NCBI GenBank assembly: GCA_000091205.1
Contig: AP006502.2
From: Cyanidioschyzon merolae
Lineage: Eukaryota
Strand: one strand, 5' to 3'
DNA length: 64,000 nt
The number at the start of each line of letters is the position of its first letter. Position 1 is the stretch's first letter. Under the pieces are notes generated by a model that saw only the letters and a program-made list of their open reading frames with translations, did not search any database and was not told the DNA's origin. Made by a program: the position numbers and the translations under genes. Below are positions 3,575-61,222 of this stretch, piece by piece.

Positions 3575-6500
3575 GCAGTGCCGATTCTGAGACCTGGAAT
3601 GCGCAGACGGGACTCATTCACGCGAGCCCAGCTGAGGTCTGTGTGCTTGCCTCGCACACTATCCACGCAAATGTCCAGAAGAGTGGCATTCAGACGAGTT
3701 GTGGAGTCCGCGCTTCACCTTGCACCCAGTTCATGGAGGCATCAGGCAGTGTAGATGGGGCGCAGATACCGCCAAGGCTCGGCGCGCCCGGGCGCTAAAC
3801 ACTCTACAGACCCCGTATGTCCAGCGTTCAGCAGAGCAATTGCGACCTCGGCGGTGAGTTCGACTCCGCCTAGGTACCAGAAGCGCGTCGAGTCAGCGGC
3901 TAGAGGTCGCGTTGAACGTGCTTCCGTGGTCGTCGTCGTCGTCGACATCTACTGTTGCTGCTGGTGGACCCGGCGCTTTGTTGCGACGACGCATTGCCGG
4001 CCGGTATCGTCGGAGCTTGCGGTGCAGATGCCGCTCCGCAGAGGCCGCGTCTGCAGGCCAGCGTCTGTCGATAAGCGCAGGTGCAGTCGCGTCCAGGCAC
4101 TGGAGTCGTGCTGCCAGTCGCGTCGTAGTCGCACGGGGTCTGTTTCGTGGGGAGTGTTCGTGGCCGTTGCGCGGCTGCGGATGCAACCACAGGGTCCAGT
4201 TTGGTAACGCGCACCGCATCCGCACAATGCAACTGTCCAAACAGACACCACAGATACGTATCTCTCGCGTGGGAGCACTGCGACGCGCGTCTGCAGCCGC
4301 AGGCAGGCTATCGACTATGCAAGTCGTGCGGTTACGAGCGCGTAGGTCAAGCACATCGCCTCGGTCGCATGTTCTGGATGGGGGGCTCGTTACTGCCACT
4401 GGAGCAGTCCGGATCAGCGCGTATCTCCATTCACTTGACTTTCCATGTTTAGAGTTGCGTCGGGTTACTGGTTTCAGGCAAGAGATGCCGACTTTCATAA
4501 ACACGAACACATATCACATGACCATTCTCGAGCGCAACAATCCGCTCACAACCTCTTGAGCGCGGAAAGAGCGTGCCACAGCATTCCCAAAAGAAGCTCT
4601 CAAACCGGAACCAACCTGTCCAGTAGAGTAACGAGATTAGACTCCAGGTGTACGGAAAGAGAAGCAAGGTAAAGATCAGGAACGCGTAGTCGTAGCGAGC
4701 TGGATGGATGTCGTTGAAGACCTTCACGACGCGGGGAACTGCGCCGCTCCACGCTGCCGGTGCCGGGGCTGTCGTAATCGTTGCCGTAGAGGCCCCGACC
4801 GACGCATCGACTGCGTCCGTGGTCGGCGTGCCGTCGGCTGCAGGGCCCACAGGCACTTGCGTCAGGCGATGCTCGCGAACCGTTTGCCAGTAACCGTAGC
4901 GATGCCGCTTCTGCCAGTCCGCAACGTACGGCGGCAGAAGCGCACCCTCGGCACCCGCGAGCGTCGAGCGCTGACTCGCAGCGTCGGGTCCCAGGCACGG
5001 ACCCGCTGGCCAAGCTGATGCACCCTCCCCGGGACCCAGTTCTTCACCGCAAACGAAGCAGCGCGAGTAGTACTGCGACAGCGGTAGAAACACGAACGAT
5101 TCTGGCTCCAAAGAGTCCGCGTCCGCGGCCGGCGTCAGAGGCGAGGCCACCAGACGCGGCTGGTGCAGCGCCGCGGCACTGTTCCCCGCGAATCCTCAGC
5201 CGTCTAGTGGCTCAAGCGGCTGGGCTCCAGCCGAAAGACGCTGGACGCCCCGTCCAGACCTGCTGGTTTGACGCTGACCTCCTGTGCGTTGCGTCGACGC
5301 ACCCCCTCCGACGAACACATGCACGCGCTCGTTTGCATCAGAAGCTTTGGACGTTGCCCGATCACCTGGTCCAGCTACTTTCCCCTGATCACCGTTTATC
5401 ATGTGCGTTCGTCTCGGTTGGTGGCAAGTTCTAGTCTCTCTGCCGGTTCACAGCGGTCTCTGGCGTTCCAGACTCGCCCAGGATACCGCCTATGAATGCA
5501 GCGCGGACGTCCGGCAGCGCTCCCGGCGGTGGTATCCGTTGACGCAGCGTCGAGGGATGATGAGGCGGCGACGATCGACGCCACAAACCCGCAGAGGATC
5601 GCATGCTCCGTTGGCCTCGGGAGTCCTAGTAGCGGCATATTGCTCGAGCTGGAAGCTTCATATCGCAAACATTGCTATAGGCGCCACTGCTGTCGCTTTC
5701 GGCAGGCTCGGCACACGACAGGACGTAGGAAACGACCAGAATATCCGAGACGAATTATAGGTAATGGAACATGGAAGTAGGGGGTTGATGGATACTTTAC
5801 AGTGCACTGAAAAAAAAGCATAAAGAAAGAAGGAAGAAACGCGCATAATCGGAGAACGCTGGCGTAAGTAAACGCTCTGTCAATGAAAAAAATCGCAAAC
5901 ATAGCATGGTATGGTCTTTCAACTGGATTTTGGTTCATAACAGCTGAGTGGAATCGAATGCTTGTTAACAGTGCATTGCTGGAAGTCCTAATCACGGTGC
6001 AGTGTATACTCTGGATCCTAGTCGAATTGTTTGTAAAATGGATTCTTTATTGAATAGTGCACGGAGGACGGCATTCTACATTCAGGTCAGTCTTACGTCT
6101 ACCCTCAGATGGTTGACGAGCACTAAAAGAGAAAAGTACATGCGCTCCGCGTCAAAAACCGACAGTCTCAAAGAGTTCTTGCGTTCAATGATAGAAAATG
6201 ATTCGTTGATCATCGAACTGAAAGCAATAAGCGGCGAGTACAGCCACCGCCGGTATCTATCTTTCTAAACAGCTTGCTCCTTTAGCCCTGAATACACTGG
6301 GATACAGTGGGAAAAAGGTCCTAGTTCACGCACGGCCATCTTGCACGGAAATCCCAACGATTACAACGTTCCTGGAACTCAGCGACCGGTTTGAAACACA
6401 AGGACATCGGTTTGTTTTTTAAGACGGCGAGGCCTCATTCGGATGAAACGGTCGGAGCTTATATGCGTACTCGCCGAGCATGCATCCCGTTTTATATACA

Positions 6501-54959: not shown

Positions 54960-56249
54960 CTAAATTTCTTCAACGAGACGCCGTTCATGGCGCTGATTCT
55001 CAACGGATCCACCGAGCGGCACCCGGAGAGAGAGCGTCGTCGGTGCAGAGGCGGCCCGCAGAGGTACGAGGGTCCCATCCAGACGAAGCCGAAGCAACAC
55101 CGTTTCCGAACAAGTTGGAGTACCAGCTTGGAATACACCTTCCTCTACTGCGTGAATTGAAAGCGAGTCCCCGGAAACACCTGGAGAAACGTACCGAAGC
55201 AAACCTCGATGAAACGCGGTCCGATGCCCGTCGAGGCATCGGCGGTATGCTGGTTCCCAGCGAAGGCGCCAGCCCCAATGGGTGCCTATGGCTCGAAGCA
55301 CAGCACTTTCGAGCGTTTCAACTACCGGTTGCCATGATCGATATGCTGTTCGTAAACAGGCTGGCAGGCGTACATCGAGCACGTCAACGAGCTCGGTGGC
55401 GGCGGGAGCAGGCACCGAGGCCTCAACGCCGCGAGCCCCCACACGGTCAAGCGGAAAGCTTCTTCGCTGGATGCGAGCTACCAACACTGTATCTGCAGTG
55501 CCGACGAGGTTTCCGTTTGCTGTCAATTGCAGATCAGCATAGGACGGATGGACCAGCTCCGAGTCCGGAGAGAAGCGCCAATGGATGTAGACTTGTTGAT
55601 CGAACTCCCGGCTCGTCATCGTACACGCTGCATTTCCCAGTGATACTAGGTCCATCTGCTGCTCCAGGTCTCTTTGCAGGACCCGGAGCCAGTGCAGGAC
55701 GCTGTAGCGCTGCCTCAACGAAAGTACAGTCTGCACGAGAGTATCGGGAACGGAGCTCGAGGTGGGTGTGGCGCTTTCCTCGCCAGGGGGCTCGGTATGT
55801 TTGCGCGACAACGCCTCGACCTGGTCCAGAGCAAGCAGGCGCCGCCACCGCTGACTTGACACGGTTTGCGCGGTACCCCGTATTCGAAGCAAACGCAAGA
55901 GGTCTGCCTTGACGTCCAGGATTCCAAGAGCCTCGCTTTCGTTTGCGGCTATTCTTTCCAGTTCCCGTTCGAATGCTTCCGGGTCCAGTTCGAAGAGTTC
56001 GAGAGCCACTGTGGCCACAGCGCCGAGCTCATGCTTTAGATCTTCAAGGATTGCTCTCAGGAGTGCAGCTGGAACAAGAGGTGCGGGGGTTACCTCCGAT
56101 TTCGACGTCGGCAGCCGTGCGTCGCCTTGGAGGCGCTCCGCAAAACATAGCACCGTGCACAGGACGACATACCGAAGCAGCGTGCCTTGGCTAGCGCGTG
56201 CTTCCACGCTGGCGGTACTCTCCGCGGCATACCCTCCCGTGGTGTCCAT
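54960..56249 (-). CDS. Hypothetical protein (429 aa)
   Basis: A long ORF on the same strand as the downstream CbbX gene. The opposite-strand ORF 54890..55912 is probably an artefact. No motif recognised. Confidence 0.3.
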   Translation of the reverse strand: MDTTGGYAAESTASVEARASQGTLLRYVVLCTVLCFAERLQGDARLPTSKSEVTPAPLVPAALLRAILEDLKHELGAVATVALELFELDPEAFERELERIAANESEALGILDVKADLLRLLRIRGTAQTVSSQRWRRLLALDQVEALSRKHTEPPGEESATPTSSSVPDTLVQTVLSLRQRYSVLHWLRVLQRDLEQQMDLVSLGNAACTMTSREFDQQVYIHWRFSPDSELVHPSYADLQLTANGNLVGTADTVLVARIQRRSFPLDRVGARGVEASVPAPAATELVDVLDVRLPACLRTAYRSWQPVVETLESAVLRAIGTHWGWRLRWEPAYRRCLDGHRTAFHRGLLRYVSPGVSGDSLSIHAVEEGVFQAGTPTCSETVLLRLRLDGTLVPLRAASAPTTLSLRVPLGGSVENQRHERRLVEEI

Positions 56250-56637
56250 AAACGCGGTCCACTGCTTCGGTACTCGCCAACGCGAGTACTCGGAGAACGC
56301 TGTTCACGGAGAGCAAGTCTTGAACCGCCGGGTACTCGTGCGTCCAGTGCGTTGCCAGCCAACTGGATGGTGGTCGTTCAGCGCGCTCGCGCTTCAACCG
56401 CGTACACCGTCATTATCCCGGGAGGTCAAAGCCTGGTGCTCCGACTCAAGCCGCACATATGAGTTACGACTTTACGTGCTTTAGACTTGAAACGACATGT
56501 GTCCAGTTGTCATTGGACCTGTCTCTGCAGTACACGTTCTGAACCAACATGGTACCTCCTATCCTGAGCAATACAGCGCGTTCGCCAAGTACGGAGTCGC
56601 CCTTCCCACACGCACTGAGTTATCCTTGCAACGACGC

Positions 56638-57843
56638 TTACTCCACAATCGCGGTCTCTCCACGTTCCAACAACTCCTGGACGGTCGGAAAGTCTTCGGT
56701 TATGAGCGTCATCAGCTCGTCGCGGCTAACGAGGCCGTCCGCGTTCGGGTCCATAGCCTTGTTGAAAATGCGGATAGCACTCCGCATCCGAGCGCGGTTG
56801 ATGAGGTTGCGAACTGTGCGCGCGTTAGAGAAGTATGGCATCTGCATACGCTTCTCGATGTACGCACGGCAGGCGGGGATCGCATCGTCTGCGATACGGT
56901 ACTCCATATCGCGGACCATCACCTTCGCGATGTCGACCAACTCCTCGAGTGTATAGTCCGGGAAGCTGATGTGATTTCCGATTCGGGAGCTGATGCCGGG
57001 GATATACGAATAGAATTTGTTCATGCGGTCCTCGTAGCCGGCAAAAATGACCACGAGATCCTCACGCTGCTCCTCCATGACGTTCAGCAAAATCTCGATG
57101 GCCTCGACACCGTAGTCGCGATCATTCGCGGCATTGTAGAGGTAGTACGCCTCGTCGATGAAAAGCACGCCTCCGAATGCGCGCTTGATTACCTCCTTGG
57201 TTTTCGGTGCGGTATGACCCACGTATTGTCCGACGAGGTCGTCGCGCGTGGCAACGATGAGATGGCCCGATCGGCTGTAGCCCATGGCCTTCAGAATTTG
57301 ACCCATGCGCATCGCAACAGTCGTCTTGCCCGTACCAGGCGAACCAGTAAATGCCATGTGCAAGGATGGTGTCGTACCAGTCAAACCCAAGCGGCTTCGC
57401 AGCTTGTCGACTACCAGCAGTGCGGCGATTTCCCGAACCCGATCCTTGACCGGTTTCAGACCAACCAAGTCGTGGTCGAGCTTCTGTAGGATATCGAGCA
57501 CGCCCTCTTTCTGAAGAAACTCGTCGATAGTGCCAGCCTCTTTGTCGTCAGGGATACTCATCAGTTCTTCGATTTTGCGTTGGCGCCGCAAACGCTCCTC
57601 GCGACGCGCCCGGTCTCGCCGTTCCGCCTCCTCGCGAGCGAGACGTGCCTCCACGTCACGCTCCTTGAGCGCATCACTAAGTCGACGTTCAGTTGGTTGC
57701 TCATAGTCTGAGCTTTCGTCAGCACGCAGACGAAAAGCTGCCGGGACAGCAGCGCCACTACGCTTTGAATTAGAGCACTTTGCGAGTGCCGGCGCCCGAA
57801 TGCGCAGTGAAATCCCCTGAAGACTAGTCGTAAAACCCAACAT
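56638..57843 (-). CDS. cbbX: CbbX-type AAA+ ATPase (red-type Rubisco activase family) with an N-terminal extension of about 150 aa
   Basis: 'GSPGTGKTTVAMRMGQILKAMGYSRSGHLIVATRDDLVGQYVGHTAPKTKEVIKRAFGGVLFIDEAYYLYNAANDRDYGVEAIEILLNVMEEQREDLVVIFAGY' is near-identical in pattern to CbbX Walker A / Walker B / sensor regions. Confidence 0.85.
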   Translation of the reverse strand: MLGFTTSLQGISLRIRAPALAKCSNSKRSGAAVPAAFRLRADESSDYEQPTERRLSDALKERDVEARLAREEAERRDRARREERLRRQRKIEELMSIPDDKEAGTIDEFLQKEGVLDILQKLDHDLVGLKPVKDRVREIAALLVVDKLRSRLGLTGTTPSLHMAFTGSPGTGKTTVAMRMGQILKAMGYSRSGHLIVATRDDLVGQYVGHTAPKTKEVIKRAFGGVLFIDEAYYLYNAANDRDYGVEAIEILLNVMEEQREDLVVIFAGYEDRMNKFYSYIPGISSRIGNHISFPDYTLEELVDIAKVMVRDMEYRIADDAIPACRAYIEKRMQMPYFSNARTVRNLINRARMRSAIRIFNKAMDPNADGLVSRDELMTLITEDFPTVQELLERGETAIVE

Positions 57844-58818
57844 GCTTCAAAGTATATATGTCAGTCTATGAATTGAACTATATTACCTGTGTTAAAGTGA
57901 ATTTTAGCACCGTATGTTACGAGCAGTCGCGAAAGCTCCACACACGCACACACACAACCGTTGTATACCGAGCGGAGCAAAGAATTCGAGCCATTCGTGT
58001 GATGCGACGCAGCATGCGCTCGCCCGCAGCCGCTCGCCCGCAGCCGCTCCGTCGTGCGCATGCCGCGCCGCATCACACGATCCCAGATGTGACCGATCGC
58101 GGCGAACGACGTGACATCGATTTCCTTCCGATTCGATAGGGCGTGTGTCCGCTGACCACGGATCCAGGACTGCGGGATGGATGCAGGTACTCGGGGAAGC
58201 GTGCATCATGTTGCACTCTAATTTCGATTACCGTTAAGTTCTCTTGGGCGTGCGGGCCGTTTCGTACGTTCTATCTTGAACCGAGTGCCTGCCGTGCTGT
58301 ACCCATCATAGCACCGAGACCGCTGGCACGGATGCCGTATTGAGAAAGCACGCGGTATTGCGCGAATACTGAGGGTGTCGGCTCGATGCCATGATTCGTT
58401 CAACGCGGCACCGCAGTGCATAATCGTGCCGGGAGCCAGCAAGCTGTGCATGCGGACATCCTGTCTGCCGACGCGCGGAGCGATATGCTACGAGTCCGCT
58501 GCGACCAGGGCGACGCCCAGACGCAGCGTAACCGTCCCTAGTGCAAGAATAAAGTGCGATGCCGACGATTTGCTCAGGTATTGCCACAGCACGCGCCACA
58601 GAACAGAGCGTGAAACACGAGTCCAACAGACTTGGACGCTCCGCGGGACCTAATACCGAGGAGGTAAACTCTCGAGAATATGGAAAACCTTTTCTTCCTT
58701 CCACGCTACCGAGAAAGCGAAACGAAATTATGATACGGTTGCTAGTCAGTGATAAGTTTCTGTTCTTTCCGCACCATACTGCATCACAGGGATGATGCGT
58801 GCGCAGCTACGAGCCATC

Positions 58819-58969
58819 GATGCAGGGGCAGGGCCTCACAACAGACTCGGTGCACTGCGGAACTTGCGGCCTGATCCATATCTTCAAGGGAACCGATGCA
58901 GGGGCAGGGCCTCACAACAGACTCGGTGCACTGCGGAACTTGCGGCGTGATCCATATCTTCAAGGGAAC
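58819..58969. repeat. Tandem duplication, 2 x 75 bp
   Basis: 'cgatgcaggggcagggcctcacaacagactcggtgcactgcggaacttgcggc(c/g)tgatccatatcttcaagggaac' occurs twice back to back (58819-58893 and 58894-58968). Confidence 0.85.
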
Positions 58970-59110
58970 TATGGATAGTCGCTCGACAAACTTGGAAGTA
59001 CGGCGTGGAATGATGGGCGCTTTCCCGGAGGCCGATACCCATCCAGCCCGCAATCTGGGATCCATGGTCCATGGGAACGTTTTGTCATCGAAAAGAAAAA
59101 TCCGTCGCTG

Positions 59111-59147
59111 CAGCGGCGGCGACGGCGGCGACGGCGGCGGCGGCGGT
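59111..59147. repeat. (GGC/GAC)n trinucleotide repeat upstream of the helicase gene
   Basis: 'cagcggcggcgacggcggcgacggcggcggcggcgg'. Confidence 0.85.
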
Positions 59148-59338
59148 GCCCAAACGCGCCCCCGCGAATCGCGTTACCGTTTCACAATCGCTTCTGCAGT
59201 CGTTTGTATACTGTGGAGAGAATACTGACGAAAATGCCAGAAGAAACAACATCAACAGTGTAAAGGAATGATCATAACGAGCAGAGGGATACGAGGGAGC
59301 GTCACGGTTCAGAAAGGGACGCCAGAGACGGCGCAAAG

Positions 59339-61222
59339 ATGGCTCGATCTTACGTACCGCCCCATATGCGGCGGCAACTGGAACAGCAGCTCCGAGTAGG
59401 TGCGGCAGCAACCGAGCGCCCACAGCCGTTTCAGGGAAACGGTGCTCCCGAGGGGCGTGCTGCCTCATCTGGGGGCTTCTTTCGAAGTGGTTCTGGGGCG
59501 TCAAGAGGAGGCAGCTCTTTTGGAGGTGGCGTGATGGGTGCTCGGGAACGCGGCACCGGGAGCGCTGCTCCGGGTGGCGGTCGGCGTTGGGGTGCGGCTC
59601 CGACAGGCCCTGGACACCAATCAGGCGCGTCATCGCGCTTGCAGCGCCTTGGATTGTGGGAGGAAACAAACCCCTACTACAGCAGTGGGCTGGGGAAGCC
59701 TCAGGAACAGGATCACGCTGCCGCTGATGCGAACGGCGAGGTTCTAGAGCTTTTCAACGGCCAGAATACTGGCATCAACTTTGACAAGTACGACGATATT
59801 CCAGTAGAAGTTTCCGGTGAGAACGTCGTACCGGAGATCATGTCCTTTGAGACCAGCGGTATGGATAAGATTCTCCTGCGGAATGTCGCACTGTCAGGGT
59901 ACCGCAAGCCCACACCTGTGCAGCGGCACGCGATCCCGACGGTGATGGCTGGTCGCGACCTCATGTCATGTGCCCAGACCGGAAGCGGGAAGACTGCAGC
60001 GTTTGTGCTGCCTGTTCTACATCAGATGCTGTTGATGGGCGGCCCCGCGCCACCGCCATCCTCGTCGGGCGTAGGCGGGATTTCCTCGCGCTCCCGTTGC
60101 TCGTATCCAACGTATCTGATTCTGGCTCCGACGCGGGAGCTTGCATCGCAAATCTTCTCTGAGTGCCGGAAGTTCTGTTACGGCACCAGTATTCGCGCCG
60201 CCGTGATCTACGGTGGCTCCGAAAATACCCGTGAGCAACTGCGCGCCGTGGAGAATCAAGTTGATATTGTGGTGGCAACACCCGGGCGCCTTTTGGATTT
60301 TATTGACCGGGGCCGCATCCATTTGGCAAACGTCCGGTTCCTGACCCTTGACGAGGCGGACCGTATGCTCGATATGGGTTTCGAGCCTCAGATCCGGCAG
60401 ATTGTGGAGAACTGCGACATGCCGGCGGCTGGCCAACGCCAAACGCTCATGTTCAGCGCAACCTTCCCACGGGAAATCCAACGGCTTGCCTCCGACTTTC
60501 TGCACGACTATATTTTCCTTGCCGTGGGGCGAGTCGGTTCCACCACGGATTTCATTGTGCAACGTATCGAGTTTTGCGAGGACCATTTGAAACGAGAGAT
60601 GCTGCTAGATCTCTTGAACAGCATACCCGGCTTGACCTTGGTTTTTGTAGATACAAAGCGAGCCGCCGATGCTCTCGAGGACTTTTTACTGCGACACGGG
60701 TATGCGGCGTCGTCGATTCACGGAGACCGGAGCCAACGCGAGCGCGAAGACTCGCTCGCAGCTTTCCGTTCAGGACAGACGCCTATTCTCGTTGCAACGG
60801 ATGTGGCTGCTCGTGGTTTGGATATCCCGAATGTTGCGCACGTCGTCAACTACGAGTTGCCAGCAGCCATTGATGACTACGTGCATCGGATTGGCCGAAC
60901 TGGTCGAGCTGGCAACCAGGGCATCGCGACCTCTTTTGCGAACGAAAAGAATCGGGGCATTGTACGTGACCTCATTGAACTCCTACAGGAGGCCGGCCAA
61001 GAGGTTCCCTCCTGGCTCTATACGATGTGTCAGGCACCAGTAGCCCGGAGCGGTAGCGGTCGAGCGGGGCGTGGCGGTCGTTTCGGCGGACGCGATATGC
61101 GTCGCGAAACGGGTGCTCCACGTCGACCTGCATTCGCAGGGAATGCATCATCGACCTCGACGATGCGCGACGAGCCCTGGGGAGGTGGCAACTGGCGTGC
61201 CTCCGGCGGAAGCGCCTGGTAA
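59339..61222 (+). CDS. DEAD-box ATP-dependent RNA helicase, DDX3/Ded1 subfamily
   Basis: Q-motif region '[13 protein letters not shown]', motif I '[11 protein letters not shown]', 'PTRELA', 'DEAD', 'SAT', '[10 protein letters not shown]', and Gly/Arg-rich tails ('[13 protein letters not shown]'). Confidence 0.9.

Follow-up and report, generated by a model that had tools for sequence, protein, structure and literature searches.

A nuclear CbbX gene of Cyanidioschyzon merolae, its translation start and its N-terminal extension

Eukaryotes of the red lineage encode the activase of red-type Rubisco in two cbbX genes, one of them in the plastid and the other in the nucleus or nucleomorph (PMC5437159, PMC5385338, PMC9833100). 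Is the open reading frame (ORF) at positions 56638-57843 of a 64,000-nucleotide (nt) stretch of Cyanidioschyzon merolae DNA (contig AP006502.2, assembly GCA_000091205.1; hereafter the window) the nuclear one, and where does its protein begin? A reading made from the sequence alone had proposed a nuclear CbbX gene with a presequence. We followed this up by database, domain and structure searches, phylogeny and comparison with the published biochemistry.

Identity of the gene and its place among CbbX proteins

The ORF is a complete, intronless and uninterrupted coding sequence on the minus strand, as are all the features within it described below. It starts with ATG and encodes 401 amino acids (aa) plus a stop codon, which falls inside the coordinates of the minus-strand ORF listing. 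Its product is identical over 401/401 aa (100%) to XP_005539202.1 / BAM83166.1 of C. merolae 10D, the latter being encoded on a 1,621,617-bp record. In the CbbX tree that Hovde et al. published in 2015 (PMC4580454 supplement), XP_005539202 already bears the label 'Cyanidioschyzon_merolae_nuc', in line with the proposal of a nuclear gene for the red-type activase. The homology search also returned a 307-aa UniRef match from C. merolae, 100% identical and named 'Ribulose bisphosphate carboxylase/oxygenase activase, chloroplastic'. Swiss-Prot entry M1UXG8.2 ('Rubisco activase, chloroplastic', 307 aa) corresponds to aa 95-401 of the ORF and begins at M95. We conclude, with a probability of roughly 0.95, that this single-exon ORF is the nuclear gene for the CbbX subunit 'CmN' of the C. 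merolae red-type Rubisco activase. The CmN gene is a known and biochemically characterised one, whose product, phylogeny and mechanism have all been published already.

Matches in Pfam, NCBIfam and the PDB show that the similarity to CbbX is real and specific. Pfam found an AAA+ alpha/beta nucleotide-binding domain at aa 163-294 (PF00004, E = 5.8e-14; 56962-57357) and an alpha-helical AAA lid subdomain at aa 319-385 (PF17866, AAA_lid_6, E = 7.9e-15; 56689-56889). The best NCBIfam match was TIGR02880 cbbX_cfxQ with 420.2 bits over aa 108-384, which leads the next model by 154 bits; the SpoVK model TIGR02881 scored 266.3, below its own cut-off of 422.95, and the EccA model TIGR03922 scored 187. 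The closest solved structure is that of Rhodobacter sphaeroides CbbX (PDB 3SYL/3SYK/3ZUH), found by phmmer with E = 2e-101 over aa 112-366. Both the NCBIfam and the PDB result agree with the earlier assignment of the AAA+ core to CbbX. Foldseek likewise ranked 3SYK/3SYL/3ZUH first (E = 5e-23), with a TM-score that was low because the AlphaFold2 (AF2) model is of moderate quality (mean predicted local distance difference test, pLDDT, 65). We used this model for N-terminal secondary structure and disorder alone.

An alignment-based check found the catalytic set complete: K173, Y207, E231, R287, H291 and R342. Residues were mapped through the PDB alignment, in which the ORF position equals the R. 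sphaeroides position plus 93, and the motif list was taken from PMC4580454. Walker A, GSPGTGKT (aa 167-174; 57322-57345), includes K173, equivalent to R. sphaeroides K80, and is invariant in 57 homologues. The pore-loop 1 tyrosine Y207 (57223-57225) corresponds to Y114, and Walker B, VLFIDE (aa 226-231; 57151-57168), ends on E231, the counterpart of E138. The Arg finger R287 and the CbbX-specific H291 (56971-56985) match R194 and H198, while the sensor-2 residue R342 lies in the lid. The published residue numbers Y114 and E138 equal the ORF position minus 93, whereas Swiss-Prot numbering would yield minus 94. According to the review PMC5437159, this alpha-helical subdomain of CbbX also holds the ribulose bisphosphate (RuBP) pocket, and both C. 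merolae isoforms have kept it. Of four CbbX motif strings quoted in the sequence-only reading, 'MLGFTTSLQGISLRIRAPALA', 'RDDLVGQYVGHTAPKTKEV' and 'GGVLFIDEAYYLY' occur verbatim in the ORF. The remaining one reads 'DRDYGVEAIEILL' here, with 'DRDYG' in place of the bacterial and plastid form 'ERDYG' that had been quoted.

We determined the relationships of the AAA+ domain with a neighbor-joining (NJ) tree of 257 columns, as the first reading had suggested. The tree comprised the plastid, nuclear, nucleomorph and bacterial sequences of the Hovde supplement, red-algal matches, six bacterial loci and an outgroup of four SpoVK-like AAA domains. A related-locus search over genome contigs supplied the six loci, which were added as bacterial CbbX sequences, while the outgroup domains came from a search that returned mostly giant proteins (see below), as did five single-domain matches used for the N-terminus comparison. 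Support values are bipartition frequencies in 300 bootstraps. The window ORF fell inside a clade of nuclear and nucleomorph CbbX (0.96), and within it paired with the Cyanidiococcus sequence (1.0). Plastid CbbX formed a clade of its own (1.0), and all CbbX sequences were split from the SpoVK-like outgroup (1.0). Over the same 257 columns, identity to the window ORF was 0.79 for nuclear Cyanidium CbbX, 72-76% for the Guillardia (nucleomorph) and Phaeodactylum (nuclear) proteins, 0.59 for R. sphaeroides CbbX, 0.58 for the plastid-encoded C. merolae subunit (CmP) and 0.45 for an outgroup domain. The ORF also has the arrangement that marks the nuclear/nucleomorph subclade, a probable targeting presequence followed by a 'RRLSDALKE.D(V/I)E' helix.

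Translation start and the N-terminal extension

The NCBI and Swiss-Prot models of this protein disagree, at 401 and 307 aa, and the shorter one leaves out both the transit peptide and a conserved helix of the nuclear type. If translation began at M95, residues 1-94 would be 5' untranslated region and the protein would have no presequence; bacterial CbbX does begin near the same position, as does the Swiss-Prot entry. We compared the gene with its Cyanidiococcus counterpart by codon position. Divergence at positions 1/2/3 was 0.22/0.16/0.54 for codons 1-50, 0.09/0.09/0.52 for codons 51-94, which align without indels, and 0.075/0.02/0.53 for codons 95-401. Since divergence at position 3 is far above that at positions 1 and 2, all three segments evolve as coding sequence, including the 94 codons that would be untranslated under the shorter model. 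The aa 51-95 segment alone has 21 synonymous against 6 non-synonymous codon differences. Conversely, the 600 nt upstream of M1 are only 49% identical and contain 176 gap columns, and an in-frame TGA lies one codon 5' of the ATG.

The protein sequences point the same way. M95 is not conserved, being L, H or N in other species. By contrast, aa 51-94 are conserved in red algae, in the nucleomorphs of cryptophytes and in proteins whose N-termini resemble signal peptides. A protein starting at M95 would, in addition, be without a plastid-targeting signal. The codon-position signature, the poorly aligning upstream region, the in-frame TGA and the unconserved M95 together support M1 as the start, as in the NCBI model, and make a start at M95 very unlikely.

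Similarity to the bacterial proteins sets in at about aa 95-112 of the ORF, and proteobacterial CbbX, at 302 aa, has nothing upstream of this. The extension is thus about 95-105 aa long and not about 150 aa as first estimated; it reaches about 160 aa only when counted to the Pfam AAA domain (aa 163).

Its first part, aa 1 to about 50 (57694-57843), is probably a stromal transit peptide of about 45-50 aa, judging by composition and conservation. Residues 1-41 contain seven K/R and no D/E, the first acidic residue being D42, and aa 1-50 contain nine S/T and eight A. Among 104 full-length homologues this segment varies and is interrupted by gaps (identity 0.07-0.18), and in the AF2 model it is disordered (pLDDT about 34). 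A phenylalanine stands at position 4 in the window ORF and within the first six residues in 44 of 57 homologues. We take F4 to fit the Phe motif of rhodophyte, glaucophyte and cryptophyte transit peptides. The first reading had deduced from the presequence a host that bears, or formerly bore, a plastid. An N-terminus with transit-peptide composition agrees with a plastid-bearing host, but the second option falls away because the host is a photosynthetic red alga. The other extended N-termini noticed in the window would then be red-algal plastid or mitochondrial presequences.

The second part, aa 51-95 (57559-57693), is a charged helix found only in CbbX of the nuclear type; it opens with 'RRLSDALKERDVEAR...' and ends at M95, and its sequence is 'RRLSDALKERDVEARLAREEAERRDRARREERLRRQRKIEELM'. 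This stretch is gap-free across the 104 homologues, with identity of 0.37-0.63, and all nuclear- or nucleomorph-encoded CbbX proteins that we looked at have it, whatever type of targeting signal precedes it. L59 is invariant, and D63, E65, R67, R70, E71, R76, Q88 and K90 are at least 90% conserved. In the AF2 model aa 55-95 form a single long helix. The stretch had been called charged and coiled-coil-like. Charged it is, as K/R/D/E make up 62% of aa 51-100. No heptad register places hydrophobic residues at more than 3 of its 12 a/d positions, and there are 11 opposite-charge i/i+4 pairs, so the helix resembles an ER/K-type single alpha-helix rather than a classical coiled coil. Its sequence is of low complexity and its net charge is +2.

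The motif 'NYRRLSDALKEADVERR' of this helix ('RRLSDALKE.D(V/I)E') recurs downstream of signal-peptide-like N-termini in two distant representatives, P0192 and P0276, which we take to be from algae with secondary plastids. It is absent from the 302-aa bacterial CbbX. Because the helix sequence is kept across lineages with very different presequences, it probably belongs to the mature protein. We propose more tentatively, at somewhat less than even odds, that it is a functional module of the mature activase and no part of the presequence. It might pair with the plastid-encoded subunit or keep it soluble, dock on Rubisco, or serve in regulation. If the recombinant CmN matched the 307-aa Swiss-Prot model, the published biochemistry left the helix out. 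The helix may be worth including in constructs meant to transfer red-type Rubisco together with its activase to crops.

Between the helix and the AAA+ core, aa 96-127 (57463-57558) consist of a 'SIPDD..G' linker followed by a helical N-extension shared with bacterial CbbX, whose alignments begin at aa 108-112. P98 and G104 are invariant among the homologues, and the AF2 model places helices at aa 106-113 and 115-125.

Function of the product and competing explanations

The literature describes the C. merolae activase as a constitutive 1:1 heterohexamer of CmN (nuclear) and CmP (plastid), whose ATPase is stimulated by RuBP and inhibited Rubisco and which needs the C-terminal tail of the Rubisco large subunit RbcL for activation (PMC5437159, PMC5385338, PMC9833100). 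According to the same three papers, in so far as they relate Loganathan 2016, CmN with CmP reactivates inhibited form ID Rubisco in an ATP-dependent manner. The Walker B change E138Q in CmN kills both ATPase and activase activity of the heterohexamer, while CmP tolerates it; the pore-loop change Y114A leaves neither CmN nor CmP nor the R. sphaeroides enzyme RsRca with activase function (PMC5437159). According to the literature, the C. merolae plastid genome carries an rbcL-rbcS-cbbX operon (PMC8504449, PMC9548191); rbcL and rbcS, being plastid genes, do not lie in this nuclear window. Given the operon and the tree placement, neither of the two outcomes that would have spoken against a CbbX gene applies, namely a host without Rubisco or a grouping with SpoVK-type ATPases.

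These data suggest the following course. The 401-aa precursor would be synthesised in the cytosol and would enter the plastid by means of the transit peptide of about 45-50 aa, as composition and conservation indicate. In the stroma, mature CmN, which probably retains the 45-residue charged helix, alternates 1:1 with CmP in an AAA+ hexamer. As the literature has established for CmN, this hexamer threads the RbcL C-tail through its pore (Y207) at the expense of ATP. The Rubisco active site thereby opens and releases inhibitory sugar phosphates.

Three points weigh against assigning the ORF to CmN. First, the NCBI product name of XP_005539202.1 / BAM83166.1 is still 'presumed transcriptional regulator for RuBisCO operon'. 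Second, at 420.2 bits the ORF stays under the 459.25 bits curated as the equivalog threshold of TIGR02880. TIGR02880 serves the annotation of bacterial and archaeal genomes. We assume that the shortfall is due to prokaryotic or plastid-type sequences behind the model and to divergence of the nuclear clade, which is about 58-59% identical to such sequences. Third, the biochemical statements on CmN rest on what reviews relate of Loganathan 2016.

The first of these points corresponds to an alternative in its own right, namely that the product regulates transcription of the plastid rbcL-rbcS-cbbX operon and is not a Rubisco-remodelling ATPase. The R/K-rich nuclear-type helix makes nucleic-acid binding conceivable. 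Its net charge is merely +2, however, and Pfam found only AAA and AAA_lid_6, with no DNA-binding domain. All residues for AAA+ threading are kept, activase activity is reported directly for CmN (PMC5437159, PMC9833100, PMC5385338), and light activation of the operon is credited to the plastid protein Ycf30 (PMC8504449). We consider a regulator very unlikely, and the NCBI name outdated. Least likely of all, to the point of being negligible, is a generic SpoVK/EccA-type AAA+ ATPase with no connection to Rubisco: both of these models do match (266 and 187 bits) and the TIGR02880 cut-off is missed, but the CbbX model scores 154 bits above SpoVK, identity is 59% to R. sphaeroides CbbX versus 45% to the SpoVK-like outgroup domain, the tree separates CbbX from the outgroup with 100% bootstrap support, and the CbbX-specific H291 is kept. 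The gene thus remains best explained as that of the Rubisco activase subunit CmN.

Genomic surroundings, related sequences and known systems

The genes around cbbX are intronless and eukaryotic, coding for a DEAD-box helicase, a PRP3 homologue, a methionine aminopeptidase (MetAP) with a zf-C6H2 domain and a glycosyltransferase. The helicase gene (59339-61222, plus strand) lies upstream of cbbX and is transcribed divergently from it. The intergenic region between the two (57844-59338) presumably contains the promoter. The same order of helicase and divergent cbbX is kept in Cyanidiococcus yangmingshanensis (L007/L008) and Cyanidium caldarium (L009), whose CbbX proteins are 89% and 71% identical to the window ORF. 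The 401/401 match to the C. merolae 10D protein, the eukaryotic neighbours and the gene order shared with two other Cyanidiales identify the window as nuclear DNA of this red alga, a setting that helps to interpret the other findings in it.

Downstream, cbbX is adjoined by an ORF of 429 aa (54960-56249, minus strand) with no Pfam match. Cyanidiococcus (L008, 7584-8792) and Cyanidium (L009, 7570-8790) each have a gene of about 400 aa at the corresponding place, also without Pfam matches. This appears to be a positionally conserved Cyanidiales gene with no Pfam assignment. On the opposite strand, a 330-aa ORF (56497-57489, plus strand) runs antisense to cbbX and overlaps it over nearly its whole length; rather than a gene of its own, we take it to be a shadow ORF such as GC-rich coding sequence produces. 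Searches of the whole 64-kb window (1-64000) for tRNA genes and for Rfam families scoring above their gathering thresholds found none.

Sequences derived from metagenomes and SRA data in the same 90% cluster as the window ORF differ from it by one-residue changes, N25I, I91V and I381M, which look like natural variation among C. merolae-like populations. Farther afield, the best 150 matches among 50%-identity representatives were nearly all giant proteins with three to eight tandem CbbX/SpoVK-like AAA modules, and plastid or bacterial CbbX did not turn up among them. These proteins (P0128-P0277) are 750-2,233 aa long, with modules 31-44% identical; P0128, at 2,233 aa, has eight matched stretches.

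Some of the bacterial loci stood out. A contig from a single-cell assembly labelled 'Prochlorococcus sp. AG-363-P15' (L002, 134-4909) carries a gene for a 302-aa CbbX-like protein, 55% identical to the query, just downstream of the alpha-carboxysome genes for CsoS2, CsoSCA and a BMC shell protein. In the NJ tree its product groups with proteobacterial CbbX. It may be a genuine activase of the red type that works alongside an alpha-carboxysome, or the contig may be a contaminant. Actinobacterial CbbX-like proteins (L003-L006, at about 3850-4830) are 51-54% identical and form their own clade. They have a common basic N-terminal extension, 'MIPP(K/R)DM.(K/R)I(L/I)(S/A)(I/F)GSK..K(K/R)(R/A)..RR', which proteobacterial CbbX lacks.

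Among known systems, the database CmN (XP_005539202.1; M1UXG8) is the same gene with an identical sequence, of which version 2 of the Swiss-Prot entry covers aa 95-401 alone. The plastid-encoded CbbX of red algae and red-derived plastids, such as CmP (BAA22821), is the paralogous partner subunit. It has the same fold and motifs at 58% identity, but belongs to the separate plastid clade (100% bootstrap), has its gene behind rbcL-rbcS on the plastid chromosome and lacks the aa 51-95 helix. Its role in the hexamer is mostly structural, given that CmP tolerates E138Q (PMC5437159). CmP aggregates without its nuclear partner (PMC6508576).

The nucleomorph- and nucleus-encoded CbbX proteins of cryptophytes, haptophytes and stramenopiles belong to the same clade as the window ORF and share the 'RRLSDALKE.D(V/I)E' helix. 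The two proteins that we take to be nuclear CbbX of secondary algae (P0192, P0276) differ in their longer, signal-peptide-like presequences, which are consistent with a bipartite targeting signal. In T. pseudonana the CbbX orthologue localises to the pyrenoid (bioRxiv 10.1101/2023.10.26.564148).

The R. sphaeroides enzyme CbbX/RsRca is 59% identical and has the same Walker A and B motifs, pore-loop tyrosine, Arg finger, His198 equivalent and sensor 2. The two also have the C-tail threading mechanism in common (PMC5437159). RsRca is a homohexamer that requires RuBP and ATP to assemble from inactive fibrils, whereas the algal enzyme is a constitutive heterohexamer (PMC5437159). At about 300-309 aa, the bacterial protein lacks both the transit peptide and the helix of aa 51-95. 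SpoVK and EccA (TIGR02881, TIGR03922) have the same AAA plus AAA_lid_6 architecture, but the ORF scores far lower against them (266 and 187 versus 420). The green-type Rca of plants performs the same task, being an AAA+ hexamer that frees Rubisco of inhibitors. Unlike the red-type activase, however, plant Rca is of independent origin, engages RbcL elsewhere than at the C-tail and is free of regulation by RuBP (PMC5437159, PMC9833100, PMC5385338).

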